The notes under the pieces are model-generated. The model made no database searches. It saw only the letters and a list, made by a program, of their open reading frames with translations, and was not told the DNA's origin. Both the position numbers and the translations under genes were made by a program. From Candidatus Saccharimonadota bacterium (GTDB taxonomy: Bacteria > Patescibacteriota > Saccharimonadia > Saccharimonadales > UBA4665), in contig OY970322.1 in NCBI GenBank assembly GCA_963716945.1, positions 570,001 to 602,000 of the forward strand: a stretch of 32,000 bases of DNA, read 5' to 3'. Positions 3,267 to 32,000 of the stretch are shown here, piece by piece. Numbering within the stretch: the stretch's first letter is position 1; every line of letters starts with the position of its first letter.

Positions 3267-3291
3267 GTGCTATGCCCGAGGTGGAGCCTAA

Positions 3292-4269: not shown

Positions 4270-4303
4270 CTACCTATTCCGGCGTCGGTGCTAGACTAAA
4301 ATT

Positions 4304-5966: not shown

Positions 5967-5993
5967 ATCTTTTATATGATAACATATAGACAG

Positions 5994-11244: not shown

Positions 11245-12341
11245 TAGCGCACCCCCAGGCTATCGCCGGCGAAGGTGATCTGGAGCGGTTCGATGACGAC
11301 TTGTTTGGGGCCGGCCTCGACAGTGCCGGCGGCCCAGGCTTTTAAGCCCTGCTTGGCGGCGACGTCGACGACCGCCCCAGCTTGCCCGGCCGGCACGTAA
11401 ACGGCGTAGCCGGCGCCCATGTTGTAGTTGCCGTACATTTCGGTCTCGTCATTGCCGGCCTGGTCGGCAATGAAAGCGAAAATCTCTTGAGCCGGCACCA
11501 GTTCTCTTATAACGTAGCTGAATTCGACTTCGGCCCGCATCAGTTTGCGCCAGCCGTGGCCGGTGATGTTTGACAGGTAGTGGACATCGATGTCGTCGGC
11601 CTGCAAGGCCTGGACCAGGCCGGCATATATATAAGACGGCGCCAGCGCGGCTTCGGCCAAAGTCCGGCCGCCGGGCAATTTGGTCTGGTAACCGTCCGGC
11701 AGCCCGGCGGCGATTTCGCGGATCAGGCTGATGCCGTTGGCGTGGGGTCCGTTGGACTCGATTAGGACTATGGCATCGCCGGCGCGCAGGTTTTTACCCT
11801 GGACCAGGTGCTTGGCGGATTTGATAATGCCGAAGGCCGAGCCGGCTAGTTCCAGCGCCCCGTCTTCGACTACTCCCGGCAGCGACTGGGTTTCGCCGCC
11901 GCCCCAGACCACCTTGGCCAAGTCGCACGCCCGGCGCCAGCCTCTGATCAGGTCGCCGGCTAATTTCTCATCGGTCAGCCATTCGTAAGAGCTGGACGAC
12001 CAGTAGGCGTTCAGAACTACGGGGCTGGCGCCGACACTGACCAGGTCATTAATAACGCAGGCGACCGTATCTTGGGCGACCTCGCCGAAATAGGATTGGC
12101 CGGTTTGCCGGTAAACGGCTTGGGCGATCAGGCTCTTAGTGCCCAGGCCTTCCTGTACGAAAGCCCCCCAGGTGCCGCCCATGTCAAAAACGTAGGCCGA
12201 TTCGCCCCTGGTGCCGTCGACTTCGCGGTAGCCGGCCGGCATGTTGCCGGCGGTAGCCAGGCCCTGCTTTTGGGCCAGGACTTTCAGGGGGTCAGCTTGG
12301 GAATAGTTAACGGACTTATGATAGGATAGCTTCTTTGCCAC
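11244..12341 (-). CDS. purM: Phosphoribosylformylglycinamidine cyclo-ligase (AIR synthase)
   Basis: [31 protein letters not shown] and [15 protein letters not shown] are collinear with PurM. GTG start with AAGAGGAG upstream. The stop overlaps the purL start by 1 nt. Confidence 0.88.
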
Positions 12342-12418
12342 GCCGGCTCCTCTTACTGATTCATTATACCAAAAATCTTAAGGTCTGCCTCCTCTGCCGG
12401 CGCCAGCTTATTAAAGGC

Positions 12419-12448
12419 TTGTCAGGCGTGTTTGTTATGGTTTATTAT
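12419..12448 (+). promoter_or_regulatory. Candidate sigma70-type promoter for the purF-purN-purD operon
   Basis: TTGTCA (12419-12424), an 18-nt spacer, then TATTAT (12443-12448), about 100 nt upstream of purF. Recognised by pattern only. Confidence 0.25.
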
Positions 12449-12556
12449 AAGAATAAGAAAGTTGCAAGCGCGTGACAGCTTTTTCGCTATTTCCGCTATC
12501 ACGAAAGCCCTAGCCGGCGCGTTTGCCGCTTCCGAACAATAAAAGGGGGAAACTAA

Positions 12557-18852: not shown

Positions 18853-19737
18853 ATGTATACCATCGGTAATGACTGCCTGGTTTCGATTGCGACTGACCGG
18901 ATTTCGGCGTTTGATGTTGTCTTGCCCCGGGCAATTCCCTATAAGGGCCAGGTTCTTAACCAATTAGCCGCACATTTTTTGGAGCAGACAGGGGATATTA
19001 TCGAAAACTGGTTGCAGGCCGTGCCGGATCCGAACGCCAGCGTCGGCCGCAAGGCCGAACCGGTCAAGATCGAAATCGTAGTCCGCGGCTGCCTGGTCGG
19101 CCATGCCTGGCGCGAGTACGAGGCCGGCAAAAGACAGCTTTGCGGCGTTGATTTGCCTGAAGGCTTGCAGGAGTATGACGGCTTCGAATCACCTATCATT
19201 ACGCCGACGACCAAGGCTGATGCCGGCCATGACGAGGATATTTCCGGCGCGGAGTGCGTCAAACTAGGCCTGGCAACGGCCGAAGAGTGGCAGCAATTGA
19301 GCGACTACGCCTTGAAGCTGTTTGCCCGCGGCCAGCAATTGGCCCGCGACCGCGGCCTGGTGCTGGCCGACACCAAGTACGAATTCGGCCGGCTGGACGG
19401 CAAGCTTATCCTGATTGACGAGGTTCATACGCCTGACTCCTCGCGCTATTTCTACGCTGACAGTTATGATGCCTACGTGGCCGGACACAAAGACGAAGCG
19501 CCGAAGCATTTGTCGAAGGAATTCGTCCGCGCCTGGCTGATGGAGCATGGCTTCAGCGGCCAAGACGGCCAGGCGGTACCCGAATTAACCGATGTTTTCG
19601 TATCGTCGGTATCGGAACGCTACATTGAGCTGTATGATAAGTTGACGGGTAAGGCTTTCGTTAAAGCCGATACTGCCGACATCCTAAGGCGCATCGAAAC
19701 CAACGTCAAAAATTATTTGCAAAGGAGCCCTTCATGA
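18853..19737 (+). CDS. purC: Phosphoribosylaminoimidazole-succinocarboxamide synthase (long form). The true start is probably upstream of the first ATG.
   Basis: ATDRISAFD, GKGQVLN-like YKGQVLNQL and ADTKYEFG. The conserved GKVRDMY motif is encoded in frame immediately upstream (18838-18858) of the first ATG. See findings. Confidence 0.9.
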   Translation: MYTIGNDCLVSIATDRISAFDVVLPRAIPYKGQVLNQLAAHFLEQTGDIIENWLQAVPDPNASVGRKAEPVKIEIVVRGCLVGHAWREYEAGKRQLCGVDLPEGLQEYDGFESPIITPTTKADAGHDEDISGAECVKLGLATAEEWQQLSDYALKLFARGQQLARDRGLVLADTKYEFGRLDGKLILIDEVHTPDSSRYFYADSYDAYVAGHKDEAPKHLSKEFVRAWLMEHGFSGQDGQAVPELTDVFVSSVSERYIELYDKLTGKAFVKADTADILRRIETNVKNYLQRSPS

Positions 19738-21137
19738 AACCAATCAACTTGCCTGCCGTCTCCGAAGCCGCTAACTATAACGCGATTGACCCGCTGGACG
19801 GCCGCTATTACGATCCCGAAATCGCCAAATACCTATCCGAAGCCAGCCGTATCGCCTACCAGGCTTACGTCGAGGCGGCGCTGGCCCGCGGCCTGGCCGA
19901 ATTCGGCATTTGCTCCGAGGAAATAGCCGGCCAGATCGAAGAAGCTGCCGCCAAAGTCACGGCCGAAGCCGTCGCCGAAGAAGAAAAAACCACCAAGCAT
20001 GATGTCAAAGCCCTGGTCAACTGCATCAAGGCCGGCTTGCCGGAAACCGCCCAGCCCTATGTCCATTTCGGCGCTACGTCTTATGATATCGTCGCCACGG
20101 CTATGAGCTTGCAACTTAGGGCGGCCGTCAACGAAGTATTAATTCCCCGCCTGGTGGCCCTCGAGAAAACCTTGCTGCGCCTGACCAAAGATTACGCCGA
20201 AACCATCCAGATCGGCCGCACCCACGGCCAGCACGCCGTGCCGGTAACTTTCGGCTTCGCCATGGCCGAATATACCAGCCGTTTGGGTGCCAGCATCAGT
20301 TCTATCAAAGTGCTCAACGGCAAGCTCAAGGGCAAGTTTTCCGGGGCCGTCGGCGCTTATAACGCGCTCAGCCTGTTCGTTGACGACCCGCTGGAATTCG
20401 AGAAAACCGTTTTGGGCTACCTCGACATTGAACCGGCTCCCTACTCGACACAGATTATACCGGCCGAAAACTACGTCCGCCTGATTGACGAACTGGCCGT
20501 TACGGCCGGCATCATGGCCAACCTCGGCCATGACATGCGCCACCTGCAGCGTTCCGAAATCGCCGAAGTCCGCGAACAATTCGAAGCCGGCCAAACCGGC
20601 AGCTCGACCATGGCCCACAAACGCAACCCCTGGAATTTCGAAAACGTTATCGGCATGCACAAGCAGGTCCTGGCCCAAGTCGTCAACGCCAACCTCAACA
20701 TCAGCAGCGAGCACCAGCGCGACCTGACCGACTCGGCTTCGGCCCGTTTCTACCCCGTCGTCATAGCCAGCGTGGCCTCAATGGCCGGCCGCCTTGACCG
20801 GGTTATGGGCAAGCTTGAAGTTGATGCCGACAACATGCAAAAGAACCTGTACATGAGCGGCGGCGCCATAGCGGCCGAACCGCTTTATTTGCTGCTCGAG
20901 AAATACGGCCACACCACGGCCCATGAAGCTTCCAAAGCTTTGGCCCACCAGGCGCTGGAAGCCGGCAAGCCGTTATACGAAGTCGCTTCGCAGGACGACG
21001 GTATTCGCGACTACTTCGCCAAGTTTACCGATGGCGAAAAGCAAATTCTGCAGGAACCCGAAAAGTACTACACCGGCCTGGCCGCCAAAAAAGCCCTGGC
21101 TGTTTACGACTACTGGCAAGATAAGCTGGCTAATTAA
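19734..21137 (+). CDS. purB: Adenylosuccinate lyase
   Basis: Fumarate-lyase signature GSSTMAHKRNP, at 467 aa. ATGA overlap with purC. Confidence 0.95.
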   Translation: MKPINLPAVSEAANYNAIDPLDGRYYDPEIAKYLSEASRIAYQAYVEAALARGLAEFGICSEEIAGQIEEAAAKVTAEAVAEEEKTTKHDVKALVNCIKAGLPETAQPYVHFGATSYDIVATAMSLQLRAAVNEVLIPRLVALEKTLLRLTKDYAETIQIGRTHGQHAVPVTFGFAMAEYTSRLGASISSIKVLNGKLKGKFSGAVGAYNALSLFVDDPLEFEKTVLGYLDIEPAPYSTQIIPAENYVRLIDELAVTAGIMANLGHDMRHLQRSEIAEVREQFEAGQTGSSTMAHKRNPWNFENVIGMHKQVLAQVVNANLNISSEHQRDLTDSASARFYPVVIASVASMAGRLDRVMGKLEVDADNMQKNLYMSGGAIAAEPLYLLLEKYGHTTAHEASKALAHQALEAGKPLYEVASQDDGIRDYFAKFTDGEKQILQEPEKYYTGLAAKKALAVYDYWQDKLAN

Positions 21138-21864
21138 GCCGGGCCATAGCTTCGACATCGGGCTTGAGCAGACGCAAAATAGCCGTCGCCGACAAGCGCT
21201 CAAACTTCAAACGTTCTGCCCGGAAACGCATTACGGATAACTGCTCCCTGACAAAGTCTCTGGTATTCTCGCGTTCAACTTCTTCCGAAGGCGGTACTTC
21301 ACCGATTGCCTCTAAGAGATCGCGTAGGTTAATAACCGGGATACCATCAATCGTCTCCGGCTTAGACTCTTCCTCTTGCCGGTCAAGCGCTGCCAAGCGA
21401 ACTGTTAAGCCGGCGATTTGCTGATTGCGCAGCGACGCGACCGTGCCTTCCTTTTCGATTATATAAGCACCGACTTTGGCAATAGCCGGACCGGGTTCCA
21501 AGCCGCTTTCTAGTAAATTATGGTAGCCCCGGTCTACGCATTGCGCCAGATGGGACTGTAAAAGCGTGACCGCCAAGCCTTGCCGGGTAGCTTCGCTTCT
21601 TCCGCCTTGTTCCTGCTCCTGTTCGTAGATACCGGCTCGATAAGCCATTATGCTTTCGTGCACTCGGTGCAAGGGACTGTCTTCAGACACGTAGCCGCCA
21701 CTATAGTTCCCCAGAGGATTATCGGCACCTGCCACGAACATGGTCTGGAGGGGGAATATGTCCGATAGCGGCTCTTCGCCGGCGCCGGCGACCAGCACTT
21801 CCGCGGCCGGAGTAAGCGCCTGGGGTATTAAGAGGGCATGCTCTTTAATCATGAAAGTATGCAA
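21130..21864 (-). CDS. Hypothetical protein, paralog A of a tandem pair
   Basis: 244-aa ORF (TTG 21864 or ATG 21852). It shares collinear blocks with the upstream gene: SDIFP, GLAVTLLQSHLAQCVDRGYHNLL versus GLSVVNLQIHLALCIDKGYLNVL, and a C-terminal helix RAERLKFERLSATAI versus RLERLRFEWLSARAI. Confidence 0.6.
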   Translation of the reverse strand: MHTFMIKEHALLIPQALTPAAEVLVAGAGEEPLSDIFPLQTMFVAGADNPLGNYSGGYVSEDSPLHRVHESIMAYRAGIYEQEQEQGGRSEATRQGLAVTLLQSHLAQCVDRGYHNLLESGLEPGPAIAKVGAYIIEKEGTVASLRNQQIAGLTVRLAALDRQEEESKPETIDGIPVINLRDLLEAIGEVPPSEEVERENTRDFVREQLSVMRFRAERLKFERLSATAILRLLKPDVEAMARLN

Positions 21865-21885
21865 TCACTTAAGGTTTATAAGCTG

Positions 21886-22539
21886 TCATTCCTCAGCGTG
21901 AGCCAATACCGACCGCTTCATTATCTGCTCGATAGCCCTAGCCGATAACCATTCGAAACGCAACCGCTCTAAACGCAGCTCGGCTTGCCTGATTTGCTGT
22001 CGCGGGCCGCTTGTCCCCTGTTGCTCCTCGGCCGGTTCCGAACGGCCGCTGAAGCTTTCAGCTTTGGCTTGGGCCGCGACCAAAGTGCCTACCTGGTCGG
22101 TGTAGCGGTCATAACTCATTTCATCCCGTTCGTCTATGTAGCCGGCTAAGATTGCGAAAGCTATGCGCGGATCATTGCCGGCGCTGCCTTTCAGCACGTT
22201 GAGGTAGCCCTTGTCAATACACAGAGCCAGGTGAATCTGGAGATTAACGACTGACAGCCCGCTTTCCGTTTCTTCGGTGGGGATATAGCCGTTTCGCCTC
22301 TCTTCGGCTTTGAGCCGGTTGCTGCGGGCAATCAGGGTGCCCATTAGCGGCTGCAAAGGGCTGTTCCCAGGCAGCGTTGGGCTAAGGTAATCTCCGAGTA
22401 TACCCCGGCTTTTCTCGGGATAAGTCTCCGGGAAAATATCCGAGCCGAGGCTATCAGAGTGTGCCAGCAGGGCTTCACGGGGCGGAGTTTCGGAAGCGGG
22501 CAGCAGCGTGGAGAAACCGGCGGCATCAGGGTGGGACAT
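21886..22539 (-). CDS. Hypothetical protein, paralog B of a tandem pair
   Basis: 217-aa ORF. It is a paralog of 21130-21864 (blocks listed there). I recognise no domain. Confidence 0.6.
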   Translation of the reverse strand: MSHPDAAGFSTLLPASETPPREALLAHSDSLGSDIFPETYPEKSRGILGDYLSPTLPGNSPLQPLMGTLIARSNRLKAEERRNGYIPTEETESGLSVVNLQIHLALCIDKGYLNVLKGSAGNDPRIAFAILAGYIDERDEMSYDRYTDQVGTLVAAQAKAESFSGRSEPAEEQQGTSGPRQQIRQAELRLERLRFEWLSARAIEQIMKRSVLAHAEE

Positions 22540-22546
22540 AATACAT

Positions 22547-22575
22547 ATTATACACTTATATTATAGTTCTTGCAA
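22547..22575 (-). promoter_or_regulatory. Near-consensus sigma70 promoter directly in front of paralog B, probably giving a leaderless or near-leaderless mRNA
   Basis: On the minus strand: TTGCAA (22575-22570), a 17-nt spacer, TATAAT (22552-22547), then only 7 nt before the ATG at 22539. No Shine-Dalgarno sequence is possible in that space. Confidence 0.5.
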
Positions 22576-22597
22576 ACATTTGCTCTTTGCCGGGCCG

Positions 22598-24271
22598 TTA
22601 GTGCATGTAGAAGCCGCGGCCGGTTTTGTCCGGTACCATCGCGATAACGGCACCCGCATCGGCCAGTGTCTTGATTACCTGTTCGTCGCCGACCGACCCG
22701 CTGGAGGTCAGGACGGCCTTGATGCCGGCCTTGGCTAGGAGCTCTGGCCCGTCGGGGAATGGGAAAAAGCTGTCACTGTAGGCGGCGGCACCTGCCAATT
22801 TTTGCTTGTCTAGAATAACTTTTAGGACCAAGTTGCCGCCCTGTTCTTCCAGCTCCGGCAAGGCGTTGGTGGTGCGGGTCAGCGCCAACTGTCCGGCCCC
22901 GACTCGGTCTTGCTGGCCGACGCCGTTGCCGATAAGCCGGCCGTCTTTGACCAGGGTGATAGTGTTGCTGTTACTGGTGCAGCCGACGGCCCAGCCGAGT
23001 ACCATGTCGCGTTTCTGCTGCTCAGTCGGCTGGCCGTGCAGCTGCATGTAATCGGCCGACAGGTCGATGACGAAATCATAATTCGGCTGTTCGAGAACGC
23101 CGCCGCGGACCGGCCGGCTACGGCGGCCGCCATCCAGCGACCCGGCGGACAGCTCGGCCAGCGCCGGGTTAACCACGACCCGCAGTTTGTTGCGGCTTAG
23201 CAGCTCCAAAGCCTCTTTGCTAACGCCTGAACCGACTACCCCGTCCAATAAACGCGGCTTGTCGCCGTCCATGGCATAGTGCATCAGCGCTTCGGCGACA
23301 TCTTCGTCAATTTCGCCATTAATCATAACTACGCCGCCGAAAATCGCTCGGGTGTCGCCCGTCAGCATTTTTTGGATAGCCTCGACCCTCGTCTCGCCGA
23401 CGGCCGCGCCGCAGGCGTTGCCATGTTTAACGCCGACGGCTATGGCTGGCACATCGTCGAAATTCTTATCAAAACCGGCAGCTATATGGGTGACGGTCTG
23501 GAGCAGCCGGTCGATGTCGGTGATGTTGATGAAGCTGCGTTCCATGCCCTGGACATGCTCGAATTTGTCCAGGCCCAGCGGGTCGGCCGCAATGCGGTTG
23601 TCGGCGTAGAAGCCGGCTTCGGCTTGCTGCGGGTTTTCGCCGTATTTGGTCGGACTGGCTAAACGGGCGGCGAAGCCGCTGATGTCCGTACCGCCGAGGT
23701 ACTTGGCCGAAGCCAGGACATAGCGGGCGACCTCGTACTCCGCCCGGGCGGCCAGATCGTGGACGAATTGCGCCTCGTCCGGTTTGCCGGCCTTGAGCCA
23801 TTCCAGCACGGGCTGCCGCTGCGAAGCATGCGACAGGACCACCCGCCGGCCCTTGGCCGCCAGGCGCAGCATGGTCGGACCGCCCATGTCGGTTTGCTCG
23901 ATAACGTCCTGCTCGGTCGCGCCGGGCTTAGCGATGATTTCTTCGAGCGGGTACATATCGACGCAAACCAGGTCGATAACCGGCAGCTTCAGTTCGGCCA
24001 TTTCGGCTAGGTCGGCGTCACTGGATTTATTAGCCAGCAGTCCGGCCGAAATTTCCCGCGACAAGGTCACGACCCGGTGGCCCAGAATCGCGCCGCCGCC
24101 GACCAGCCCGGCGATGTCAGTAACTTTAATGCCGGCCGCCTCGATAGCCTTGGCCGTACCGCCGGAAGCATAAACCTGCCAGCCCAGCTCGGCCAGCCCG
24201 CGGGCGAACTCATCGATACCCGACTTGTCATAAACCGAAATCAACGCCACGCCGGCCGCTTCGCCCATCAT
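22598..24271 (-). CDS. purH: Bifunctional AICAR transformylase / IMP cyclohydrolase
   Basis: N-terminal MGS-like IMPCH domain (ALISVYDKSGI, ASGGTAK), then an AICARFT domain with VKHGNACG. AAGGAGG lies upstream. The second ATG (24268) has the better spacing. Confidence 0.95.
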   Translation of the reverse strand: MMGEAAGVALISVYDKSGIDEFARGLAELGWQVYASGGTAKAIEAAGIKVTDIAGLVGGGAILGHRVVTLSREISAGLLANKSSDADLAEMAELKLPVIDLVCVDMYPLEEIIAKPGATEQDVIEQTDMGGPTMLRLAAKGRRVVLSHASQRQPVLEWLKAGKPDEAQFVHDLAARAEYEVARYVLASAKYLGGTDISGFAARLASPTKYGENPQQAEAGFYADNRIAADPLGLDKFEHVQGMERSFINITDIDRLLQTVTHIAAGFDKNFDDVPAIAVGVKHGNACGAAVGETRVEAIQKMLTGDTRAIFGGVVMINGEIDEDVAEALMHYAMDGDKPRLLDGVVGSGVSKEALELLSRNKLRVVVNPALAELSAGSLDGGRRSRPVRGGVLEQPNYDFVIDLSADYMQLHGQPTEQQKRDMVLGWAVGCTSNSNTITLVKDGRLIGNGVGQQDRVGAGQLALTRTTNALPELEEQGGNLVLKVILDKQKLAGAAAYSDSFFPFPDGPELLAKAGIKAVLTSSGSVGDEQVIKTLADAGAVIAMVPDKTGRGFYMH

Positions 24272-24500: not shown

Positions 24501-25037
24501 ATGAGCACAGCAAGCGTAACCAAAGAAAACTGGTGGGCTCTGGTTCTAGGGGGTGTGGCAACTATTATCTTCGGTGTGGCAGCGGTCTTTTGGCCGGGGC
24601 TGACACTGCTAGTGCTGCTCTATCTGTTCAGTGCCTACGCGCTGGTCAGCGGAGTGGTTAACGTGACGGCCGGTCTTGGCACGCTGGGCCGCGTCGATTC
24701 GTGGTTCCTGCCGGTCGCGCTGGGCGCGTTCGAACTGGGTGTCGGGGTGTACCTGCTCCGCCACACGGCCGTGAAGTTCAGTACCTTCATCGTACTGATC
24801 GGTTTCGTATTGATTGCCCGGGGCGTCATTGAAGCCGTCGGGGCTTACTTTAACGCCGGTCTGGCCGCCCGGGCCCGGGCCTTAAGCTATCTGAGCGGCC
24901 TCGGCGCGCTGGTAGCCGGTATCGCCATCCTGTTCGCCAAGCAGGCTCAAGGCGTGTCCTTCGTTTGGATCCTGGGTCTGTACGCGATTATCGTCGGTAC
25001 GATCCAGATTACCGAGTTGTCCAGCGGCAGCAAATAA
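24501..25037 (+). CDS. HdeD/DUF308-family membrane protein
   Basis: NWWALVLGGVATIIFGVAAVFWPG... and repeated TM pairs typical of DUF308. The start is set at ATG 24501, which is preceded by AAGGAGGG (24486-24493). The track start at 24405 has no RBS. Confidence 0.65.
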   Translation: MSTASVTKENWWALVLGGVATIIFGVAAVFWPGLTLLVLLYLFSAYALVSGVVNVTAGLGTLGRVDSWFLPVALGAFELGVGVYLLRHTAVKFSTFIVLIGFVLIARGVIEAVGAYFNAGLAARARALSYLSGLGALVAGIAILFAKQAQGVSFVWILGLYAIIVGTIQITELSSGSK

Positions 25038-25059
25038 ACAATTCAGATAAATAATAAGG

Positions 25060-25091
25060 CGCAGGCAGTCGGATTAGGCTGCCTGCGTTTG
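25060..25091. terminator. Hairpin between convergent genes (candidate bidirectional terminator)
   Basis: CGCAGGCAG (25060-25068) pairs with CTGCCTGCG (25079-25087), giving a 9-bp perfect stem and a 10-nt loop. It is followed by TTTG on the + strand and by a T-rich run on the - strand. It overlaps the last codons of the GNAT-like gene. Confidence 0.4.
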
Positions 25092-25667
25092 CATGTCAAA
25101 GCGGCTGTTTAGCTCATAGGGCTGTTCCAGTTCGGCCACCCCGACCCGGCTAAGGTCGATAACCACACCGAAACCTATCTTGCGATGCTCAAGGTCCGCT
25201 TCAAACTGCCCTGACCGTTCCAGCAGCGCGATTGCCTCGTCGGCCGATATGGGCAGTTCGGCTTCGTGGCCGTCGATCGGGTCGGCATTCGTAAAACTCA
25301 GGCTATCTTCGCCGAATACCCGGCGCAGCGCCATGACGGTGTACTGGGAGTTGGCCTGGCCGCTGAGGCTTTCGATCTGGTTTTGCTTGGCTACGTAGCC
25401 CAGAGCGCTGATCAACCGCTTGCCGATGCCGCCTTCGCGGATGGACGGGTCAACCCTTAGGCCTAAAAATACCATTTCCCGCGTATTGCCGTCGGCATCA
25501 TCCCGGCCCATGGCGGCGTTGAAAGTGCAGCCATATGGCAGCTTAAGCCCCAAACGGACCTTGCCTATCGAGGTATCGTCTGACCATGAAGCTTCTACCG
25601 GACAATTCTGAAGATCGTTCAGTATAAAGCGGCGCTCGGCTTCCCGGCGTTTGGCCAAACTGTTCAT
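25074..25667 (-). CDS. GNAT-like N-acetyltransferase (tentative)
   Basis: 197-aa ORF with LRVDPSIREGGIGKRLISAL, which resembles GNAT motif A (R/Q-x-x-G-x-G/A). I recognise no other motif. Confidence 0.45.
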   Translation of the reverse strand: MNSLAKRREAERRFILNDLQNCPVEASWSDDTSIGKVRLGLKLPYGCTFNAAMGRDDADGNTREMVFLGLRVDPSIREGGIGKRLISALGYVAKQNQIESLSGQANSQYTVMALRRVFGEDSLSFTNADPIDGHEAELPISADEAIALLERSGQFEADLEHRKIGFGVVIDLSRVGVAELEQPYELNSRFDMQTQAA

Positions 25668-25705
25668 AAATAAACATTAACATAAAATAATCACTTTGAC
25701 AAGTA

Positions 25706-25713
25706 GTAGCTCA
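25706..25713. repeat. Left copy of the 8-bp direct repeat GTAGCTCA (putative target-site duplication)
   Basis: Abuts the left TIR. An identical 8-mer abuts the right TIR at 28344-28351. Confidence 0.75.
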
Positions 25714-25739
25714 GGCATGTCCCCCCAAAGCACAAGTAG
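25714..25739. repeat. Left terminal inverted repeat
   Basis: GGCATGTCCCCCCAAAGCACAAGTAG. It is the inverted match to 28318-28343 (23/26). Confidence 0.85.
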
Positions 25740-25800
25740 ACCTTTCAGGTGGGTAGATAGAGATCACAGTTATTTCTAAATATTATGAGATAATAGGGGG

Positions 25801-26301
25801 ATGGAGCCGAGACGACCTATAGGTAATTATGCTTTCATAGATTCTCAGAATCTATATATGAGTCTTGAGGAGTGCGGATGGCGGCTAGACTGGCGAAAGT
25901 TCAGAACGTATCTTAGAGAAAAGTATGCAGTGACTGATGCTTACGTATTCATAGGTTATATTTCAGCTCAAGAACCATTATATAAATTCTTACAAGAAGC
26001 TGGATTTACACTTATTTTTAAGGAGACCCAGAAGAGAGTTGATGGTTCATCTAAAGGTAATGTTGATGCCGAATTAGTTCTGAACGCTATGATAGAATAC
26101 CCGAATTATGATAAAGCGGTAATCATAACTGGTGATGGGGACTTCGCTTGCCTTATCACTTATTTAAAGAAACAAGATAAGTTACAAATGCTTCTTGTTC
26201 CCAATGAAGCTAAATATTCTGCACTACTCAAAAAGGCAGCAGCCAGCCAGTTGGCTTCAATTAGCAGTCTTCAAAAGAGGCTAGAATACATCCCTAAATG
26301 A
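25801..26301 (+). CDS. NYN-domain (LabA-like, PIN-related) putative ribonuclease
   Basis: NYAFIDSQNLY, GNVDAELV and VIITGDGDFACLI place the conserved Asp residues as in the NYN/LabA fold. 166 aa. Confidence 0.8.
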   Translation: MEPRRPIGNYAFIDSQNLYMSLEECGWRLDWRKFRTYLREKYAVTDAYVFIGYISAQEPLYKFLQEAGFTLIFKETQKRVDGSSKGNVDAELVLNAMIEYPNYDKAVIITGDGDFACLITYLKKQDKLQMLLVPNEAKYSALLKKAAASQLASISSLQKRLEYIPK

Positions 26302-26307
26302 AAAGCA

Positions 26308-26342
26308 CCCCTTAAGGACGGAACCTTAAGGGGGTCTTTTCG
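26308..26342. terminator. Rho-independent terminator after the NYN gene. It probably acts in both directions.
   Basis: CCCCTTAAGG (26308-26317) pairs with CCTTAAGGGG (26324-26333), giving a perfect 10-bp stem and a 6-nt loop. GTCTTTTCG follows on the + strand, and an A-run precedes the hairpin, which reads as a T-run on the - strand. Confidence 0.7.
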
Positions 26343-26460
26343 TGGTAATTACATCTCTAATTATACACATCACAAAGAAATAAGTCAATAGTTTTGTCAA
26401 GTTTAAGCATAAAAGATGTGAATGATCACAGATTCTTTGTAACTTCACTTTAGGCCTCAT
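26326..26460 (-). CDS. Candidate small ORF (44 aa, below the track cutoff). Hypothetical.
   Basis: My own translation gives MRPKVKLQRICDHSHLLCLNLTKLLTYFFVMCIIRDVITTKRPP. It is preceded by AAGAGGAGG, although the spacing to the ATG is short. Its stop sits inside the 26308-26333 hairpin. Coding status is unproven. Confidence 0.2.
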   Translation of the reverse strand: MRPKVKLQRICDHSHLLCLNLTKLLTYFFVMCIIRDVITTKRPP

Positions 26461-26502
26461 AGCCTCCTCTTAATAACTATTTAATAATCCCCCAAAGAGC
26501 CG

Positions 26503-26526
26503 TATCACAGGGGTTTGTGATATAAT
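26503..26526 (+). promoter_or_regulatory. Palindromic operator-like site overlapping an extended -10 element
   Basis: TATCACA-GGGGTT-TGTGATA (26503-26522) has 7-bp perfect arms. It is immediately fused to TGATATAAT, an extended -10 (TGn + TATAAT at 26521-26526). No good -35 element is present. Confidence 0.35.
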
Positions 26527-26555
26527 CGCTTTGTTCTAGTTTTGGCGGTTTTTTT

Positions 26556-26647
26556 ATTTACATTCGAAATGGGCAACCTATTTCGAACACAGTGAATGTA
26601 AATTTACTGCTGGAACTAGAACAACCTAGAAATGGGTTGTCCTTTTT
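26556..26647 (+). promoter_or_regulatory. Structured 5' leader: a long imperfect hairpin plus a terminator-like hairpin just before the RBS of the 26664 gene
   Basis: ATTTACATTC (26556-26565) pairs with GAATGTAAAT (26594-26603), with an inner GAAAT/ATTTC stem. ACAACC (26621-26626) pairs with GGTTGT (26635-26640) and is followed by CCTTTTT. The duplicated CAACCTA and GAAATGGG segments allow alternative pairing. Confidence 0.3.
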
Positions 26648-26663
26648 ATTTAAGGGAGGTTTT

Positions 26664-27098
26664 ATGAAGAAGGTCCTAATCCTAGCGGCAGTAATTATCA
26701 TCGGTTTGACAGGCGGAGTGATGGCTCTTACGTCTTCAAAGCCTAAACCAAAGGCTCAGAACCTCATTACTGTAAGCAAACCGATACAAGCTAAAGCGCC
26801 CGTCAGCCAACCTACGGTTACTGCTACGCCTGGCGCTCAAGTCGCTACCGCTTCTACTGCGCCCGATCCTGCTTGCCTTAGTCAAAAAGCTTCACAGTTA
26901 GTCTCTATCCAAACCCAAGAAACCCAAGTTCAGGCGCAAATAGACCAGATCACTGCAAGAATACGGGGCGAAATAGTCGGAGAAGCTGTAACACCGGCAG
27001 TTATGGCAATTGAAATCACAGATCAAACAGCTTCTCTTCAAAGCCAGTTAACCGCTCTAAAAGCTCAGTACGCTTCTGTTCAAGCAAAGGTTTGTTAG
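26664..27098 (+). CDS. Single-pass membrane/secreted protein with a Q-rich coiled coil. Hypothetical.
   Basis: The start is set at ATG 26664, with AAGGGAGG at 26652-26659. Features are MKKVLILAAVIIIGLTGGVMAL (signal/anchor), a P/T/A-rich linker, and Q-rich heptad-like segments (QTQETQVQAQIDQITARI, LQSQLTALKAQYASVQAK). Confidence 0.6.
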   Translation: MKKVLILAAVIIIGLTGGVMALTSSKPKPKAQNLITVSKPIQAKAPVSQPTVTATPGAQVATASTAPDPACLSQKASQLVSIQTQETQVQAQIDQITARIRGEIVGEAVTPAVMAIEITDQTASLQSQLTALKAQYASVQAKVC

Positions 27099-27439
27099 TG
27101 AAGATAAAAGTAGAAGAGGCGTTAGCCGTCATACTCCTTGTGCTCCTATGCTCCATAGGTTCTTACTATTTCGGCCATCACATAGGCTTCTCTACAGGCT
27201 ATACGACAGGTGAAGATAGAGGCTCTGCACTACAAGTAGCGCACGACAAACCTGTTCTTGCGTCAGCTTACAGCGCTAATACGAAGCTTACAGATCAATA
27301 TAACCAGCTATCGGATAACTACAATAACCTAAGAAACTCAGTTCTTAAATATATAAGCGTGGCTCAGTACCAGGCTAGTAGGCCAATTAGTTGTACCAGC
27401 AATACCTTACCCAATACGACTTTTACTAATTGTTTTTAA
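27092..27439 (+). CDS. Single-pass membrane protein with an N/Q-rich helical segment. Hypothetical.
   Basis: TTG 27092 or GTG 27098 start, overlapping the upstream stop (coupled). TM segment ALAVILLVLLCSIGSYYF, then TKLTDQYNQLSDNYNNLRNSVLKY, and a C-terminal Cys pair. Confidence 0.5.
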   Translation: MLVKIKVEEALAVILLVLLCSIGSYYFGHHIGFSTGYTTGEDRGSALQVAHDKPVLASAYSANTKLTDQYNQLSDNYNNLRNSVLKYISVAQYQASRPISCTSNTLPNTTFTNCF

Positions 27440-27525
27440 TTTCTTTAGGCTATAGTAGTTTCATGACTAAAACTAAATTTGATAAAGCTTTGGATAAGGT
27501 ATTCGGGCCTAAACGGAAGAAGTAG

Positions 27526-27831
27526 TTACTGTTTGTCTTTAATTTCTTGGAGAAGTTGTGTTTGCTTATTGGTTTGGTCTACTTGGCTCGACACGAAAGC
27601 AGCGAAAGCGATAATAACTCCAGCTAGGGTTATAAGAGCAATAATAAAACCTAATGTAGTTATTGCTTGAATTGTCGAGATTTGAGAATCCTGTCTTTCT
27701 ATTCTCTTTATGGCATCCTCTGCTTGGTTTTGAGTTTGTTTTATTTGAGTTGCAAGAGCAGATAGGACTTGTTGACTCTCAGAATCAATACTATTTTCAT
27801 CGGCTGCTTGAAATATGTTATCGTCACTCAT
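27526..27831 (-). CDS. Tail-region single-pass membrane protein with a Q-rich coiled coil. Hypothetical.
   Basis: 101 aa. It has an acidic N-terminus, QIKQTQNQAEDAIKRIERQDSQISTIQ, and the TM segment LGFIIALITLAGVIIAFAAFV. ATGA overlap with the upstream 27828-28238 gene. Confidence 0.55.
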   Translation of the reverse strand: MSDDNIFQAADENSIDSESQQVLSALATQIKQTQNQAEDAIKRIERQDSQISTIQAITTLGFIIALITLAGVIIAFAAFVSSQVDQTNKQTQLLQEIKDKQ

Positions 27832-28238
27832 ACTTTTCTAACTAAAAAATAAAACTTGTTATCATCCTGAAGACGCTTACCATTATCATAAAAACGCAGG
27901 TAGTAACGGCCAGGTTTTTTAAATTCAACTAGCATAAACCTCGCAGCAAAATCTGCATCTCCCTCAGTAAATTCACCTATAAGCTTAGAAGTCGCAAATA
28001 CGGTTTTGTCCGGAGCAATTATCCTAACTTCAGCTTGTGACTTGCCAGCAGTAACATTATTAATACTGCCCACCACAAAAAAAGACTGAAATGTACTTGT
28101 TTGATTTTCAAATATGCTAACAGCATTAAAGATGTCTATATACGACCATTTACCGGTTGCGGCATCACGAATGGCATTCTCGGTAGGTATCAGATATCTT
28201 ATGGTAGTTTGAGCGGACATAGGTACTTTATGAAACAC
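27828..28238 (-). CDS. Small soluble beta-rich protein. Hypothetical.
   Basis: 136-aa ORF (GTG 28238, or ATG 18 nt downstream). No TM segment and no motif I can name. Translationally coupled to 27526-27831. Confidence 0.55.
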   Translation of the reverse strand: MFHKVPMSAQTTIRYLIPTENAIRDAATGKWSYIDIFNAVSIFENQTSTFQSFFVVGSINNVTAGKSQAEVRIIAPDKTVFATSKLIGEFTEGDADFAARFMLVEFKKPGRYYLRFYDNGKRLQDDNKFYFLVRKV

Positions 28239-28317
28239 CTCTCTGGTTAGTGTATCAATTGTACCGATATTTTTCTAAAACTGCACGACTTATCCATTCA
28301 AATGGATAAGTTTAGGG

Positions 28318-28343
28318 CTACTTGTGCTTTGGGGGGAAGGGCC
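28318..28343. repeat. Right terminal inverted repeat
   Basis: CTACTTGTGCTTTGGGGGGAAGGGCC. It is the inverted match to 25714-25739. Confidence 0.85.
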
Positions 28344-28351
28344 GTAGCTCA
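28344..28351. repeat. Right copy of the 8-bp direct repeat GTAGCTCA (putative target-site duplication)
   Basis: Abuts the right TIR and is identical to 25706-25713. Confidence 0.75.
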
Positions 28352-28375
28352 TAAGGCTGCACTGGGCTTTATGTT

Positions 28376-29455
28376 TTAAAATTTCCGGGCGCCGCAAAAC
28401 CTGACCAGCTGGCGTAATTCTTGCTTGGCCCCCCGGTCAAGGTCCAGCCGGTCGATGTGCCGAAAGGCGGTTTGCTCCAGCTTCGAGACGTCCTGTTTGA
28501 GGCGGTCCTGTAGCCGGCCGCGGCGCATGGCTTGCTGGACGTAGCTTATATCATCGGCACCGGCAGCCGGGTTGCCGAAGACGGCCAAGAGCCGGCGCCG
28601 TTCGGCGGCACCGGCGGCTTGCCAGAGGTAGTAATAGAGCAGCGTCTTTTTGCCTTCGCGGATGTCCGAGCCGACCGGCTTGCCGATGTCTCCCGCCAAG
28701 CCCAAACTGCCGAGCTCATCATCCCTTATCTGGAAAAGCGTGCCGGCCGCCATACCGATGTCGTGCAGCCGCCGGCGCGTAGCCGCCGGTTGTCCGGCTA
28801 GGATGGCGCCGGCTTCCAGGGGCAGGGCTAGCGAATAAGTGGCCGTTTTGGCGCGCATGACGGCGTAAATGTCGCGCTTGGGCGGCGGCACCGGCAAGGA
28901 CCCCAAATAGATGTCTTGCATCTGGCCGGCACAGACGGTAGTCAGCTCGCGTATGAAGAGCCGGCTTAATTGCAGGCTGCCCGTGGTTTGGGATTTCGCC
29001 GACGCCAGCAGTTCGAACCCCAGAAACAGTACCATATCGCCGGCGCACAATGCCAGCCCTTCGCCGAGCCGCGCGGGGTCGGCCAGGCCCTGGCGGGCTG
29101 CCAGCTTGCCGTACTGGGCGTGGATCGAGGGCCGGCCGCGCCGGAGTTCGTCTTGGTCGATAATATCGTCATGGATTAATAGTCCGGCGTGGACCAGCTC
29201 GATGGCGGCCGCGGCATTGAGGACGGCCGGCGGCAGCTCCTGGCCCGGCTGGTTGCCGCTGCAGATCGTATAACTGTAGCAAATCAGGCTGCCGCGCAGC
29301 AGCTTGCCGGCAACGGCGAAATCCCGCAACCGGTCGATGAAGTCCGCGCTCCAGGCTAGGCCGCCGCCCGACAGCTTGCGGTGGCGGGCGATAAAAGCTT
29401 CCAGTTCGGCCAGCACCGCCGGCCGGTAAGCTGTGACAGGGTCGATATTTTTCAT
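28376..29455 (-). CDS. trans-Polyprenyl diphosphate synthase (FPP/GGPP-synthase family; chain length not determinable)
   Basis: First Asp-rich motif LLIHDDIIDQDELRRGRPS, then KTA.YS, and a second motif FQIRDDELGSLG...GKPVGSDIREGKKT. ATGA overlap with the upstream fusion gene. Confidence 0.88.
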   Translation of the reverse strand: MKNIDPVTAYRPAVLAELEAFIARHRKLSGGGLAWSADFIDRLRDFAVAGKLLRGSLICYSYTICSGNQPGQELPPAVLNAAAAIELVHAGLLIHDDIIDQDELRRGRPSIHAQYGKLAARQGLADPARLGEGLALCAGDMVLFLGFELLASAKSQTTGSLQLSRLFIRELTTVCAGQMQDIYLGSLPVPPPKRDIYAVMRAKTATYSLALPLEAGAILAGQPAATRRRLHDIGMAAGTLFQIRDDELGSLGLAGDIGKPVGSDIREGKKTLLYYYLWQAAGAAERRRLLAVFGNPAAGADDISYVQQAMRRGRLQDRLKQDVSKLEQTAFRHIDRLDLDRGAKQELRQLVRFCGARKF

Positions 29456-31434
29456 ACTTTGGCCGCCTTGCCGTGCCGGCCGTAGTGCTTGATGAAGCGG
29501 CTGGCTTGGGTCTGGGCTGCCAGGGTGTCGGCAACCGAGCTGTCGATTCTATCAAGCAAGCCCGTGATTGCGTTATTGGCTTTCAGCTCCGGCCAGCCCT
29601 GCAGTTTGTGCCGGCCAAGAGCGGTTTGCTGCCGGATCGTCCGGCAAATCCGCGGCAACGTAGAGTGCCAGAATTGCCGCTGCAGCTGCGGCAGCAGTTG
29701 GGGCCGGCTATAATTTCCGGGGCCGATGCCCGCGTCACCGAAGATAGCGGCTACCACATAAGTGAGGTGGCCGTTACGCAGGTCCTCTTGCCAGTCGTGG
29801 GCGTCATCATTGAGCTGCCTGGCTATTAAGTAATGGCTAAAAGCCTGCCGCACGCTGTCAAAAAGCGGTTCGTCGGGGCCGACTCCCCTGGCCCGCAGAA
29901 CGGCTAGCGGCGTCAGGCCGTGGCCTAGCGAACGTTCCGCCAGCTTGGACAGGTCGCCGTAATCCGGCAGGTCGTCAACCGCCAACTGCTGTCCGCGGAT
30001 AACGCAGCGGCAGTGTTTTAATTCCCAGGCGTTGGCACTGTCGATAGTGTCAAATGTCCGCCTTACCAGGTCTTGGAAGCCGCTGTCGGCCGGCAACGCG
30101 CCGCCGAACCCGGCAATCGAATAACGCAAGGCCAAGGTGGCTGCTGGCAATAAACCCGGCCGGCCTTCTTCGTCAAGGAAGTCGTCAAAAATCGTGTAGG
30201 CCGCCCAGCCGTAAAGGTTGGCTAAGCCGAGTTGACGCAACAGCGGCTGGCACGCCCGCCCTAAAGGTTTGGCCAGCGACTGGTTGAAGGCCTGCGGCAA
30301 GTCGACTATTTCGGCGCCTATGGGACTGCGGGCCAGCTTGTCAAGGAAACCGACTGTCACGGTTCGCAATTCCGGCTCCAGCCCGTTACAGGCCCGCCTG
30401 GCGGCCGCCAACACTTGCGGCCGGTTGCTGGTATAGCCCGGGCCGGCTTGCCGCTCGGGCCGGATCGGTTCCGTCCGCAAGGCCTGCTGGCGGTACAGCT
30501 CCAACGCCTCTATTGCCAGTGCTGTCGTCAAGCTCTCGCAGCCATTGTAGTAAGTTATGCCGTCGCGGGCCGGATCCAGGCAGAAAGCTTCGGCCGGCCA
30601 CGAGCCGTCGGCCGCTTGGGCGGCCAGCAAGCGTCCGGCCAGCGGGCCGGCATCCTTAGCGCCCAGCCGCAGCAAGGAAGTCGCCGACAAGGCGTTTTTA
30701 AGGGGCGTCAAGTTGTTATCCTGGTCACGTGTTTGCCGTATGGCTGACAGTAGCTTGCCAGCCAACGGCCCCTTATACGACCGGGAAAGGTAATAAAAAA
30801 GCGGATAAGCCGAGGCGTAATAAGGCGAGGCTAGCTGGCCCTGGCTTATGGCCTTTTCGATGAGGCCGGTAATGCTGTCCAGCGGCTGGCTGACAAGCAA
30901 TAAAAGGTAGCCGATATTGGCGTTAACCGCCAGGTCGACGTCCTGCCAGGCTGCCGCGCTGCCGGCCGTCAGCCAGGTTTTGTAAGGGCCGCCGACCCGC
31001 GTTTCAGCTGCCAGCAGCAATTTTACGAACGCCGCCAGGGCTTCGGCTCCTACCAGCCCTGGTTGGTAGAGCGTCAAGCCGATTAGGGCGCAGCTGGTAT
31101 CGTCCAGGTCGTCGGGATAAGGTTGTTCGGCGCGTTCGGCCGATGCCTTGCTCCAATAGTTAAACGACCAATGCGGGCCGGCCTGGGCTTTGACAAAAGC
31201 CGCCAGGCGCCGTTTCAGCCGCCGGACTGCCGGCGTATCCGAACCGGCCAGGCCCGCCAGTATAAGGCTGGGCACGAAAGTAGTCTGATAGGTGAAAACT
31301 TTTTCGAAGCGGCCGGCCGAGGGGCTGGAGAAGCTGTCGAAGCCGCCATCCGGGCGCTGGGCCGCCGCCAGGTAGGCCGCCGCCTTGTCGATGGCGATGG
31401 TCAAGTCCCCGTCGGAGCGTAGATTATTTGGCAT
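29452..31434 (-). CDS. Two-domain terpenoid enzyme candidate: N-terminal terpene-cyclase/prenyltransferase-type alpha/alpha barrel (aa ~1-320) fused to a class I isoprenoid synthase domain resembling squalene/phytoene synthases (aa ~345-660)
   Basis: N-terminal domain: QW-like repeats AQRPDGGF and AQAADGSW, and the DxDDT motif in YPDDLDDTSCAL (nt 31093-31113). C-terminal domain: YTIFDDFLDEE (DDxxD, nt 30172-30186) and ARQLNDDAHDWQEDLRNGHLTYV (nt 29782-29811), which resembles the second SQS/PSY motif QL.N..RD..ED...GR.YLP. Confidence 0.55.
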   Translation of the reverse strand: MPNNLRSDGDLTIAIDKAAAYLAAAQRPDGGFDSFSSPSAGRFEKVFTYQTTFVPSLILAGLAGSDTPAVRRLKRRLAAFVKAQAGPHWSFNYWSKASAERAEQPYPDDLDDTSCALIGLTLYQPGLVGAEALAAFVKLLLAAETRVGGPYKTWLTAGSAAAWQDVDLAVNANIGYLLLLVSQPLDSITGLIEKAISQGQLASPYYASAYPLFYYLSRSYKGPLAGKLLSAIRQTRDQDNNLTPLKNALSATSLLRLGAKDAGPLAGRLLAAQAADGSWPAEAFCLDPARDGITYYNGCESLTTALAIEALELYRQQALRTEPIRPERQAGPGYTSNRPQVLAAARRACNGLEPELRTVTVGFLDKLARSPIGAEIVDLPQAFNQSLAKPLGRACQPLLRQLGLANLYGWAAYTIFDDFLDEEGRPGLLPAATLALRYSIAGFGGALPADSGFQDLVRRTFDTIDSANAWELKHCRCVIRGQQLAVDDLPDYGDLSKLAERSLGHGLTPLAVLRARGVGPDEPLFDSVRQAFSHYLIARQLNDDAHDWQEDLRNGHLTYVVAAIFGDAGIGPGNYSRPQLLPQLQRQFWHSTLPRICRTIRQQTALGRHKLQGWPELKANNAITGLLDRIDSSVADTLAAQTQASRFIKHYGRHGKAAKV

Positions 31435-32000
31435 GGCGTTTGAAGGGCATGGTTATAACGAAGGTCGTGCCTGCCTTGGAGCTGTTTAGGTTGATAGTGC
31501 CGCCGAAGTCCTTTTCGGCTACTTGCTTGACGATAAACAGGCCGATACCCATGCCTTTATCCTTGGTGCTGTAAAAGGGTTCAAAAACCTTAGCCTGGTC
31601 GGCCCGGCGGATACCCTTGCCGCGGTCGCTGACCGTAATTCGCAAATCGCCCCCTGTCTTGTCAACCGCTACCGTCACTGCCGCCGGGCTTTCGGACGTC
31701 GGCCTAGCGCCCTGGTAGGACTCTATGGCATTGGACAGAAGGTTGATTATGATTTGCCGGAAGCGCGTCAAGTCGCCCCGGTACATAATCGGGCGCCGCG
31801 CCGGCGGGCTATCCAGACTGACGCCGACTTCTGCCCGGTTGCTCTGGTAGCTCAGGATCTTGATAATCTCGGCGATTTCTTCTCTGACGTTGAAGCGTTC
31901 GACCTCGCTTTGGCCTTGGATTTGCCGGCGCACGCGCCGCACGACTTCGTCAATGTAGCTGATATTGTCCTGAATCCGGGTGGCAATGTCGGAGTGGGGG
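31424..32000 (-). CDS. Sensor histidine kinase, C-terminal part (HATPase_c). The 5' part lies beyond the right edge.
   Basis: N-box NLLSNAIESY, G1 SDRGKGI and G2 GMGIGLF. The frame stays open to the window edge (my translation: PHSDIATRIQDNISYIDEVV...). The 31942 track start is an internal GTG. The stop overlaps the downstream fusion gene by 11 nt. Confidence 0.85.
   Translation of the reverse strand, partial: PHSDIATRIQDNISYIDEVVRRVRRQIQGQSEVERFNVREEIAEIIKILSYQSNRAEVGVSLDSPPARRPIMYRGDLTRFRQIIINLLSNAIESYQGARPTSESPAAVTVAVDKTGGDLRITVSDRGKGIRRADQAKVFEPFYSTKDKGMGIGLFIVKQVAEKDFGGTINLNSSKAGTTFVITMPFKRHAK

Follow-up and report, generated by a model that had tools for sequence, protein, structure and literature searches.

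Genomic Organization of the Locus

The window analyzed in this study is a 32,000-nucleotide (nt) stretch of the genome of a Candidatus Saccharimonadota bacterium (contig OY970322.1, positions 570,001 to 602,000). At its right end, a histidine kinase gene, a gene for a 660-amino-acid (660-aa) protein of two fused domains, and a polyprenyl synthase gene follow one another on the same strand (Table 1). The 660-aa protein and the genes that accompany it, which may form a peptide signaling cassette, are the subject of this report. Direct reading of the sequence showed that the stop codon of the fusion and the start codon of the polyprenyl synthase share the ATGA at 29452-29455, and that the kinase gene (TAA, 31424-31426) overlaps the fusion gene (ATG, 31432-31434) by 11 nt. 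In the 660-aa translation, the motifs AQRPDGGF, PDDLDDTS, AQAADGSW, and DDFLDEE occupy aa 25-32, 107-114, 272-279, and 417-423, respectively, and the distance from D417 to D543 is 126 residues. An earlier reading of the window, made from its letters only (hereafter, the sequence-only reading), had reported these open reading frames (ORFs), motifs, and overlaps, and translation and inspection of the sequence reproduced all of them.

An identical public contig (L001), of which nt 1437-13985 correspond to window positions 32000-19452 at 100% identity, reaches 1436 nt further and supplied the start of the kinase gene, a gene for a 38-aa peptide, and a response regulator gene. The peptide gene was invisible to the sequence-only reading because it lies past the window end.

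Table 1. Features of the locus, in window coordinates; positions above 32000 are window-equivalent positions on contig L001.
Feature	Coordinates	Strand	Basis
Polyprenyl synthase gene (359 aa)	28376-29455	minus	PF00348 polyprenyl_synt, E 5e-48
660-aa two-domain fusion, maturase candidate	29452-31434	minus	ORF list and AlphaFold2 (AF2) model
N-terminal domain, aa 1-322: single alpha/alpha-barrel class II terpene cyclase, TC-beta type (predicted)	30469-31434	minus	Foldseek and profile search
D108-D109-L110-D111-D112-T113, DxDD(T) acid motif	31096-31113	minus	AsDMS alignment, invariance
Y205-Y206; Y206 equivalent to AsDMS Y427	30817-30822	minus	Profile alignment; numbering verified against AsDMS Y373/R378/R380
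C-terminal domain, aa 338-660: all-helical, trans-isoprenyl diphosphate synthase (IDS)-like; proposed tryptophan (Trp) prenyltransferase	29455-30423	minus	Foldseek
D417-D418-F-L-D421, DDxxD, like FARM, the first Asp-rich motif	30172-30186	minus	Conservation
aa 540-555 (QLNDDAHDWQEDLRNG), like SARM, the second Asp-rich motif, Gln 3 residues ahead	29770-29817	minus	Conservation
Histidine kinase, C-terminal 191 aa of 461	31424-32000, past window end	minus	HATPase_c, E 3e-25
Kinase start on L001 (kinase: L001 628-2013, window-equivalent 31424-32809)	32809	minus	Gene call and translation
38-aa peptide gene on L001 (MKDVITSILTDASMRDDAAIEAALMQQAVAVPWADVSE), about 890 nt past window end	32886-33002		Gene call and translation
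OmpR-type response regulator on L001	beyond the peptide gene		Gene call

Architecture and Distribution of the Fusion Protein

The AF2 model of the 660-aa protein, built on a 117-sequence alignment, had a pLDDT of 94.8 and a pTM of 0.88. It comprises two domains, aa 8-321 and aa 338-657, joined by a linker that is disordered at aa 324-330. The first of these is the single barrel of about 320 aa that the sequence-only reading had described.

A word-indexed search retrieved 363 relatives. Among the 120 listed, almost all were full length (about 640-665 aa) and shared 45-74% identity with the query, and their precomputed Pfam domains amounted to one spurious PF07678. The relatives are named 'hypothetical' or 'prenyltransferase/squalene oxidase repeat' in databases, and the family has no Pfam or NCBIfam model. 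Searches of Pfam and NCBIfam with the whole protein and with each half gave nothing above threshold, the weak matches being to oxidosqualene cyclase (OSC) and squalene-hopene cyclase (SHC) models at aa 7-124. A scan of one genome per GTDB species detected relatives in 311 genomes, including those of Saccharimonadales, Levyi-, Davies- and Shapirobacteria, Moraniibacteriota, and Doudnabacteria, besides a few metagenome-assembled genomes (MAGs) labeled as not belonging to the Candidate Phyla Radiation (CPR). An exhaustive HMMER search with the C-terminal half as a query yielded 1379 clusters (50% identity) at E ≤ 1e-3, of which 689 reached E ≤ 1e-30. Among the 150 matches listed, the long proteins carried the match at their C-terminal end with the domain order unchanged, and the rest were short proteins or fragments with the C-terminal domain alone. 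This search was also intended to bring out non-CPR relatives or other domain orders, and the 150 matches listed all belonged to the family itself. The family is thus large and, in the sequences surveyed here, has been seen only in Patescibacteria (CPR). The numbers of relatives, genomes, and clusters rule out an assembly or frameshift artefact, against which the sequence-only reading had cautioned; the 660-aa protein is a genuine, broadly conserved fusion in CPR bacteria.

Eleven residues (D109, L110, D111, D417, D421, Q540, D543, D544, D547, D551, and G555) are invariant among the 117 homologues. In the GTDB-derived sets, where identity falls to about 25-33%, L110, D544, and G555 are each conserved in at least 90% of sequences and the other eight are still invariant. 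These patterns bear on a non-catalytic role, in which the protein would serve the two-component system as a sensor or scaffold with retained terpenoid-enzyme folds, for example by binding an isoprenoid ligand. Such a role would suit the strict coupling of the fusion to the kinase described below, but the invariance of D109, D111, Y206, D417, D421, D543, and D547 among sequences of 25-35% identity indicates selection for catalysis and makes it most improbable.

N-Terminal Class II Cyclase Domain

The sequence-only reading had placed the N-terminal half among the class II terpene-cyclase barrels by its acid motif, and structure and profile comparisons bear this out. The best Foldseek match of the domain in the PDB was AsDMS's TC-beta domain (E 1e-9), followed by the myxobacterial cyclases 8pak and 8paj (about 345 aa) and then by SsDMS and SHC. 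Searching PDB sequences with a profile of the domain gave AsDMS with E 1.3e-17 over 280 residues (aa 27-308). AsDMS is a bacterial drimenol synthase of the HAD-TC-beta type (PDB 9mhs, 9m7d; PMC12365925, PMC12232559) with a single TC-beta barrel, in which D331, D333, and Y427 are essential; Y427 activates the catalytic aspartate, and mutating any of the three residues abolishes activity (PMC12365925). In the profile alignment they correspond to D109, D111, and Y206, all of which are invariant in the family. The domain therefore combines the features of a TC-beta class II cyclase, namely a single barrel, a DxDD acid with an activating tyrosine, and significant homology to the characterized AsDMS. 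Neither a protein-prenyltransferase beta subunit nor a LanC-like barrel appeared in the Foldseek top 50, and with the AsDMS homology being significant, a toroid of a non-terpenoid family was rejected. By sequence and model, the N-terminal half belongs with the single-barrel class II terpene cyclases, its acid motif being in place and its cyclase activity predicted.

The diphosphate site of AsDMS has no counterpart in the 660-aa protein. In AsDMS, R378, R380, R425, and R513 form salt bridges with the substrate diphosphate (PMC12365925), and all four arginines are missing here, the aligned positions being W163, D165, P204, and A289, respectively. Of the remaining Arg/Tyr cluster, Y373 falls at a variable position and Y426 aligns with Y205, the sole residue retained. 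R218 is the only conserved basic residue of the cyclase domain, and there is no conserved cationic cluster. Because the arginines are replaced and R218 stands alone, the substrate of the cyclase probably no longer carries a diphosphate when it is cyclized. This argues against the cyclization of a prenyl diphosphate to a free terpenoid, and with it against the compact route from C5 units to such a product that had been suggested from the sequence.

C-Terminal Isoprenyl Diphosphate Synthase-like Domain

The Foldseek neighbors of the C-terminal domain are trans-IDS enzymes, headed by the GGPPS 5jfq (E 1.3e-3, TMt 0.69) and followed by FPPS and SPS, with E values of about 1e-3 and TMt values of 0.6-0.69. 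No squalene synthase (SQS), phytoene synthase (PSY), or class I cyclase was present in the top 50. The conserved motifs are D417-D-x-x-D421 and Q540-x-x-D543-D544-x-x-D547-W-x-x-D551-L-x-x-G555, with D418 conserved in at least 90% of sequences and W548 invariant. This layout is the canonical IDS pattern FQxxDDxxD...DxxxGKxT and also that of PalQ (D89/D93, Q197, and D200/D204), in which Q197 is proposed to hold the indole NH. The domain thus has the FARM and the glutamine ahead of the SARM that characterize Trp prenyltransferases, a combination that canonical IDS enzymes share equally.

In sequence, the domain stands apart. Neither PF00348 nor PF00494 nor any other Pfam family matched above threshold, a profile search of PDB sequences returned chance matches only (e.g., p14 and Mdm4), and an hhalign comparison with the adjacent IDS family reached less than 1% probability and misaligned the FARM with the SARM. 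The GKxxR, RRG, and KT motifs of canonical IDS were absent by eye. The class I isoprenoid-synthase fold that the sequence-only reading had assigned to this half was recovered by Foldseek, but the likeness to SQS, PSY, and HpnC/HpnD that it had drawn was not, since the motifs are DDxxD and QxxDDxxD...DLxxGxxT and PF00494 is lacking. An SQS/PSY identity was rejected on the absence of any PF00494 or NCBIfam match, on DDxxD in place of DxxED, and on the Foldseek list. An NSE/DTE reading of NDDAHDWQE was rejected as well: N542 is about 70% conserved and E550 is unconserved, whereas D543, D544, and D547 are invariant or nearly so. As modeled, the C-terminal domain is of the trans-IDS fold and not of the SQS/PSY fold.

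Conserved Operon of Regulator, Peptide, Kinase, and Fusion

Gene neighborhoods were compared for four loci found by protein identity and 80 loci from GTDB genomes; all counts refer to loci with enough sequence. The loci cover Saccharimonadales, Microgenomates, Parcubacteria, and Doudnabacteria, with fusion identities down to 33%. The operon runs in the order OmpR-type regulator, 34-41-aa peptide gene, six-transmembrane (six-TM) histidine kinase, and fusion. All 77 loci have the kinase upstream of the fusion, at a distance of at most 200 nt in 73, and the regulator (Response_reg and Trans_reg_C, OmpR-type) is upstream of the kinase in 64 of 69. A small ORF lies between the regulator and kinase genes in all 74 loci with room for one, and the small peptide and the fusion were found together in every locus examined. 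Two-component control of a terpenoid pathway had been considered possible from the sequence. The kinase is indeed a partner of the fusion, but control alone falls short as an explanation, since in practically every locus the fusion comes with the kinase, the regulator, and the Trp peptide gene.

Within aa 25-189, the kinase contains about six TM segments, with short loops and almost no extracytoplasmic part. Its HATPase_c domain is clear, while no Pfam HisKA-type model (HisKA, HisKA_3) matched even at E ≤ 1; the H-box region reads FAELGHLSTALFHDMANHL.

Two further observations concern the cassette. A gene for a CRP/FNR-type regulator (cNMP_binding and HTH_Crp_2) stands directly upstream of the response regulator gene in many loci of Saccharimonadales, for example L002 (4906-5592), with similar genes in about 14 loci. 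The cassette may receive a second regulatory input through it. A cassette of the CPR type was also found in several GTDB representative MAGs titled Gammaproteobacteria, Bacillota, Methylomirabilota, Dormiibacterota, and Vitreimonas (L005, L032, L043, L049, L051, L053, L059, L062, L070, and others), titles that probably reflect mislabeled taxonomy or contaminated bins.

Small Trp-Containing Peptide

The peptides are 34-41 aa long, and a Shine-Dalgarno-like sequence precedes 53 of 73 of them. The pattern by which their ORFs were picked itself required a leucine, a Trp, and a basic residue, and their other features are independent of it. The N-terminal block reads M-x-x-[ILV]-[ILV]-x-x-[ILV]-L-T-D-x-x-x-R. 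A single Trp is present, with a proline ahead of it in 61 of 73 peptides and with 1-7 residues, never zero, after it. In 61 of 72, the Trp stands 24-25 residues from the conserved Leu.

The two groups of lineages differ in the character of the peptide. In Saccharimonadales it is acidic and amphipathic and does not resemble a TM helix. In Parcubacteria and Microgenomates (L064, L078, L081, L058, L069, and L080), the N-terminus is strongly basic, with a net charge between +4 and +9, and about 14 residues right before the Pro-Trp make up a hydrophobic core, as in a Sec signal peptide. Phr-type pheromone precursors likewise carry a signal peptide. The lineages may differ in how the peptide is exported.

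These properties also bear on whether the peptide is the substrate of the fusion. Alternatively, another acceptor, such as free tryptophan or indole, a lipid, or a larger protein, would be prenylated and cyclized, and the small ORF would be an accessory of the kinase, like the membrane peptides that modulate other sensor kinases. The basic N-terminus and TM-helix-like hydrophobic core of the Parcubacteria and Microgenomates peptides would fit such an accessory, as would the position of the peptide gene next to the kinase and not next to the fusion, and Ord1, an enzyme of the same fold, farnesylates free Trp (PMC13290415). The Saccharimonadales peptides, however, are not TM-like, and a lone invariant Trp near the C-terminus at a fixed distance from a Leu suits a substrate docked at two points. 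With the translational coupling of kinase and fusion and the constant company of peptide and fusion added, a different acceptor appears quite unlikely.

Downstream Polyprenyl Synthase

The 359-aa protein encoded downstream of the fusion is a canonical trans-polyprenyl diphosphate synthase, with a PF00348 match and the GKxxR, DDIID...RRG, and KT motifs, which are retained in 16 orthologues. Its second aspartate-rich motif (aa 243-251) is FQxxDDxLG, with Gly for the third Asp, and the same is true of all 16 fusion-adjacent orthologues. The sequence-only reading had regarded this synthase as the pathway partner of the fusion. The wider comparison contradicts this: the gene adjoins the fusion in merely 16 of 77 loci, mostly of the closest Saccharimonadales relatives, and its family recurs downstream of the fusion in 19. 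Other downstream genes were each found in no more than 6 loci. The polyprenyl synthase is a lineage-restricted accessory gene and not a core partner; in this lineage it likely supplies the prenyl donor.

The synthase is relevant to the proposal that the 660-aa protein is a bifunctional synthase of a free terpenoid. Its C-terminal domain would then make or ionize a prenyl diphosphate and the class II domain would cyclize the product, yielding a membrane component or a small-molecule signal, with the two-component system regulating the pathway or sensing its product. The nearest solved homologue of the cyclase domain, AsDMS, acts on farnesyl diphosphate (FPP), the C-terminal domain retains both aspartate-rich motifs at an IDS-style spacing, a true IDS is translationally coupled to the fusion in this lineage, and fusions of class II cyclases with prenyltransferases occur in fungi (PMC12393454). 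A free product is nevertheless unlikely, given the lost diphosphate-binding arginines and the lack of IDS profile similarity, of a PF00348 match, and of the canonical IDS motifs in the C-terminal domain. The neighborhoods point the same way, an IDS being adjacent in 16 of 77 loci as against a Trp peptide in 74 of 74.

Proposed Function of the Cassette

With modest confidence, we propose that the 660-aa protein probably acts as a bifunctional maturase of a ribosomal peptide signal, and that its partners form a pheromone cassette, conserved across Patescibacteria, like ComQXPA and PalPXQ. Since a Trp peptide and a two-component sensor invariably go with the protein, its most likely product is a peptide signal decorated with a terpene and not a free terpenoid. 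Confidence is limited to this degree because each chemical step is inferred.

In the proposed mechanism, a precursor of 34-41 aa with the conserved N-terminal block and its single Trp near the C-terminus would be made first. The IDS-like domain would then bind a prenyl diphosphate through Mg2+ at the DDxxD motif and ionize this donor, and the Trp indole, held by Q540 and the SARM-like motif, would be alkylated. The donor would be of C10-C20 length and would come, in this lineage, from the adjacent polyprenyl synthase. Next, the class II domain would protonate the terminal double bond of the attached chain to give rings, with D111 as the acid and Y206 activating it. The loss of the cyclase arginines fits this sequence of prenylation first and cyclization second, the order described for ChrPC and NctPC. 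Finally, the lipidated peptide would be exported, and the six-TM kinase would sense it and signal to the OmpR-type regulator.

Several findings weigh against the proposed maturase and pheromone functions. Pfam, PDB profile, and hhalign searches detected no sequence similarity of the C-terminal domain to a characterized prenyltransferase or IDS, and its assignment as a prenyltransferase draws on fold and motifs that canonical chain-elongating IDS enzymes share. The SARM of the ComQ family is degenerate, whereas that of the C-terminal domain is kept rich in aspartate. The Parcubacteria and Microgenomates peptides, resembling a signal peptide or a single TM helix, would also suit a role as the kinase's small membrane partner. 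An OmpR-type regulator and a kinase with no HisKA_3 match set the two-component proteins apart from the ComP/ComA class. A conserved exporter or leader peptidase was sought among the downstream neighbors of the fusion and was not found.

A broader extension of the proposed function is tentative. The cassette may be a widespread peptide pheromone system of CPR bacteria's own, in which a near-C-terminal Trp bearing a cyclized terpenoid is made by the fusion and read by the six-TM kinase and the OmpR-type regulator. The assembly of such a system would have been independent of that of Bacillus ComQXPA, and the system would possibly be ancestral to the group.

Neighboring Sequence

The window segment 26300-28370 (about 2.1 kb), between an NYN-domain gene and the polyprenyl synthase gene, has a G+C content of 38-41% versus about 58% elsewhere. 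Its ORFs (168, 115, 101, and 136 aa) had no family match above threshold, the best being a weak one to DUF6941, and on the identical public contig no genes were called in it save one of 38 aa. The segment may have been inserted from a foreign source or may be in decay. An Rfam search of window positions 25000-32000 gave no match. A de novo purine-synthesis cluster occupies window positions 19452-24271 (L001 9169-13985) and includes a PurH-like gene (22598-24271, minus strand), a PurB-like gene (19734-21137, plus strand), and a SAICAR synthase gene. This neighborhood recurs in L002; its presence is noteworthy given a genome size of about 1.1 Mb.

Novelty and Significance

There are precedents for the enzyme logic (2024) and for the pheromone logic (ComX, PalX). 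It appears that no description exists of their combination, of its occurrence throughout the CPR, of the distinct precursor, or of the wiring to an OmpR-type regulator. A literature search for links between CPR bacteria or Saccharibacteria and ComQXPA, terpene cyclases, or terpene clusters returned nothing relevant, although the original ChrPC paper was outside this search and may already mention such loci.

CPR bacteria, most of them uncultured, are attached to hosts, and their genomes measure about 1 Mb. To our knowledge, how they sense one another or their hosts is essentially unknown, and we know of no other cell-cell or symbiont-host signaling system described for ultra-small episymbionts. 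The retention of the four-gene cassette across several CPR classes implies a function under strong selection, and the cassette offers a directly testable candidate signal for these bacteria. If the proposed function is correct, it would be the first link between terpene-cyclized RiPPs (peptides synthesized by the ribosome and modified post-translationally) and signaling, and would extend the terpene-cyclized ribosomal peptides reported in 2024 from toxin-like natural products to signals. It would further bring in an enzyme family that is very large (no fewer than 689 clusters at E ≤ 1e-30), distinct in sequence, and now annotated as hypothetical. Genome-mining tools presumably tag such loci as 'terpene' clusters; the present analysis suggests that they are better read as RiPP/pheromone loci.

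Comparison with Known Systems

Among characterized enzymes, ChrPC and NctPC are the closest in concept. [quoted passage not shown] Like them, the 660-aa protein joins in one chain a monodomain class II cyclase, here the N-terminal domain, and a putative prenyltransferase domain, which in ChrPC is trans-IDS-like (PMC13290415). The proposed chemistry would be alike too, with an internal Trp of a ribosomal peptide as the acceptor and the chain cyclized after transfer. The precursor here, in contrast to a proteusin, Nif11, or lasso precursor, is of 34-41 aa with a leader of its own, and the cassette is connected to a two-component system and occurs in Patescibacteria; for ChrPC, the comparison is with the description in the review.

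The cyclase domain is nearer to AsDMS's TC-beta domain than to anything named MstE in the PDB match lists. It shares with AsDMS the homologous single barrel and several conserved cavity aromatics, but its fusion partner is an IDS-like domain instead of a HAD phosphatase, and the diphosphate-binding arginines are replaced. In the drimentine pathway, a class I-fold prenyltransferase farnesylates C3 of the Trp in a diketopiperazine, and a separate cyclase builds the drimane. There, as proposed here, an indole is prenylated and the chain is then cyclized by protonation; the drimentine enzymes, however, are separate proteins, their cyclase is membrane-bound, and the substrate is a cyclodipeptide and not a ribosomal peptide. 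The prenyltransferase domains of the fungal enzymes PvCPS and PaFS make or ionize a prenyl diphosphate. PvCPS has a beta-gamma didomain cyclase, a canonical, Pfam-recognized geranylgeranyl diphosphate (GGPP) synthase, and a free diphosphate product. Like the 660-aa protein, PvCPS unites a class II cyclase with an IDS-fold domain, its GGPP synthase, in one chain (PMC12393454).

Among signaling systems, the PalQ cluster of Paenibacillus consists of a kinase, a Trp peptide, and a prenyltransferase (PalP-PalX-PalQ; PMC10853753), and StheQ/StheX is another prenyltransferase/peptide pair (preprint 10.64898/2026.08.29.745113). The cassette described here resembles ComQXPA, PalPXQ, and StheQ-StheX in that the genes for an IDS-fold enzyme, for a small precursor whose Trp is near the C-terminus, and for a multi-TM histidine kinase stand together, and ComQXPA also in having the regulator, so that a candidate prenyltransferase, a Trp precursor, a membrane kinase, and a response regulator, the four parts of ComQXPA, are found in one operon. 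The C-terminal domain also has, as PalQ does, a FARM and a Gln 3 residues ahead of the SARM position. The Trp is internal, as in ComX, whereas it is C-terminal in PalX. Unlike the ComQXPA, PalPXQ, and StheQ enzymes, which have no cyclase domain, the fusion carries one. It has no detectable similarity to polyprenyl_synt/ComQ, the gene order of the cassette differs, the regulator is OmpR-type and not NarL-type like ComA, and the kinase lacks the HisKA_3 domain of the ComP type. Judged by gene content and domain composition, the cassette is an analogue of ComQXPA and not a member of that family of systems.

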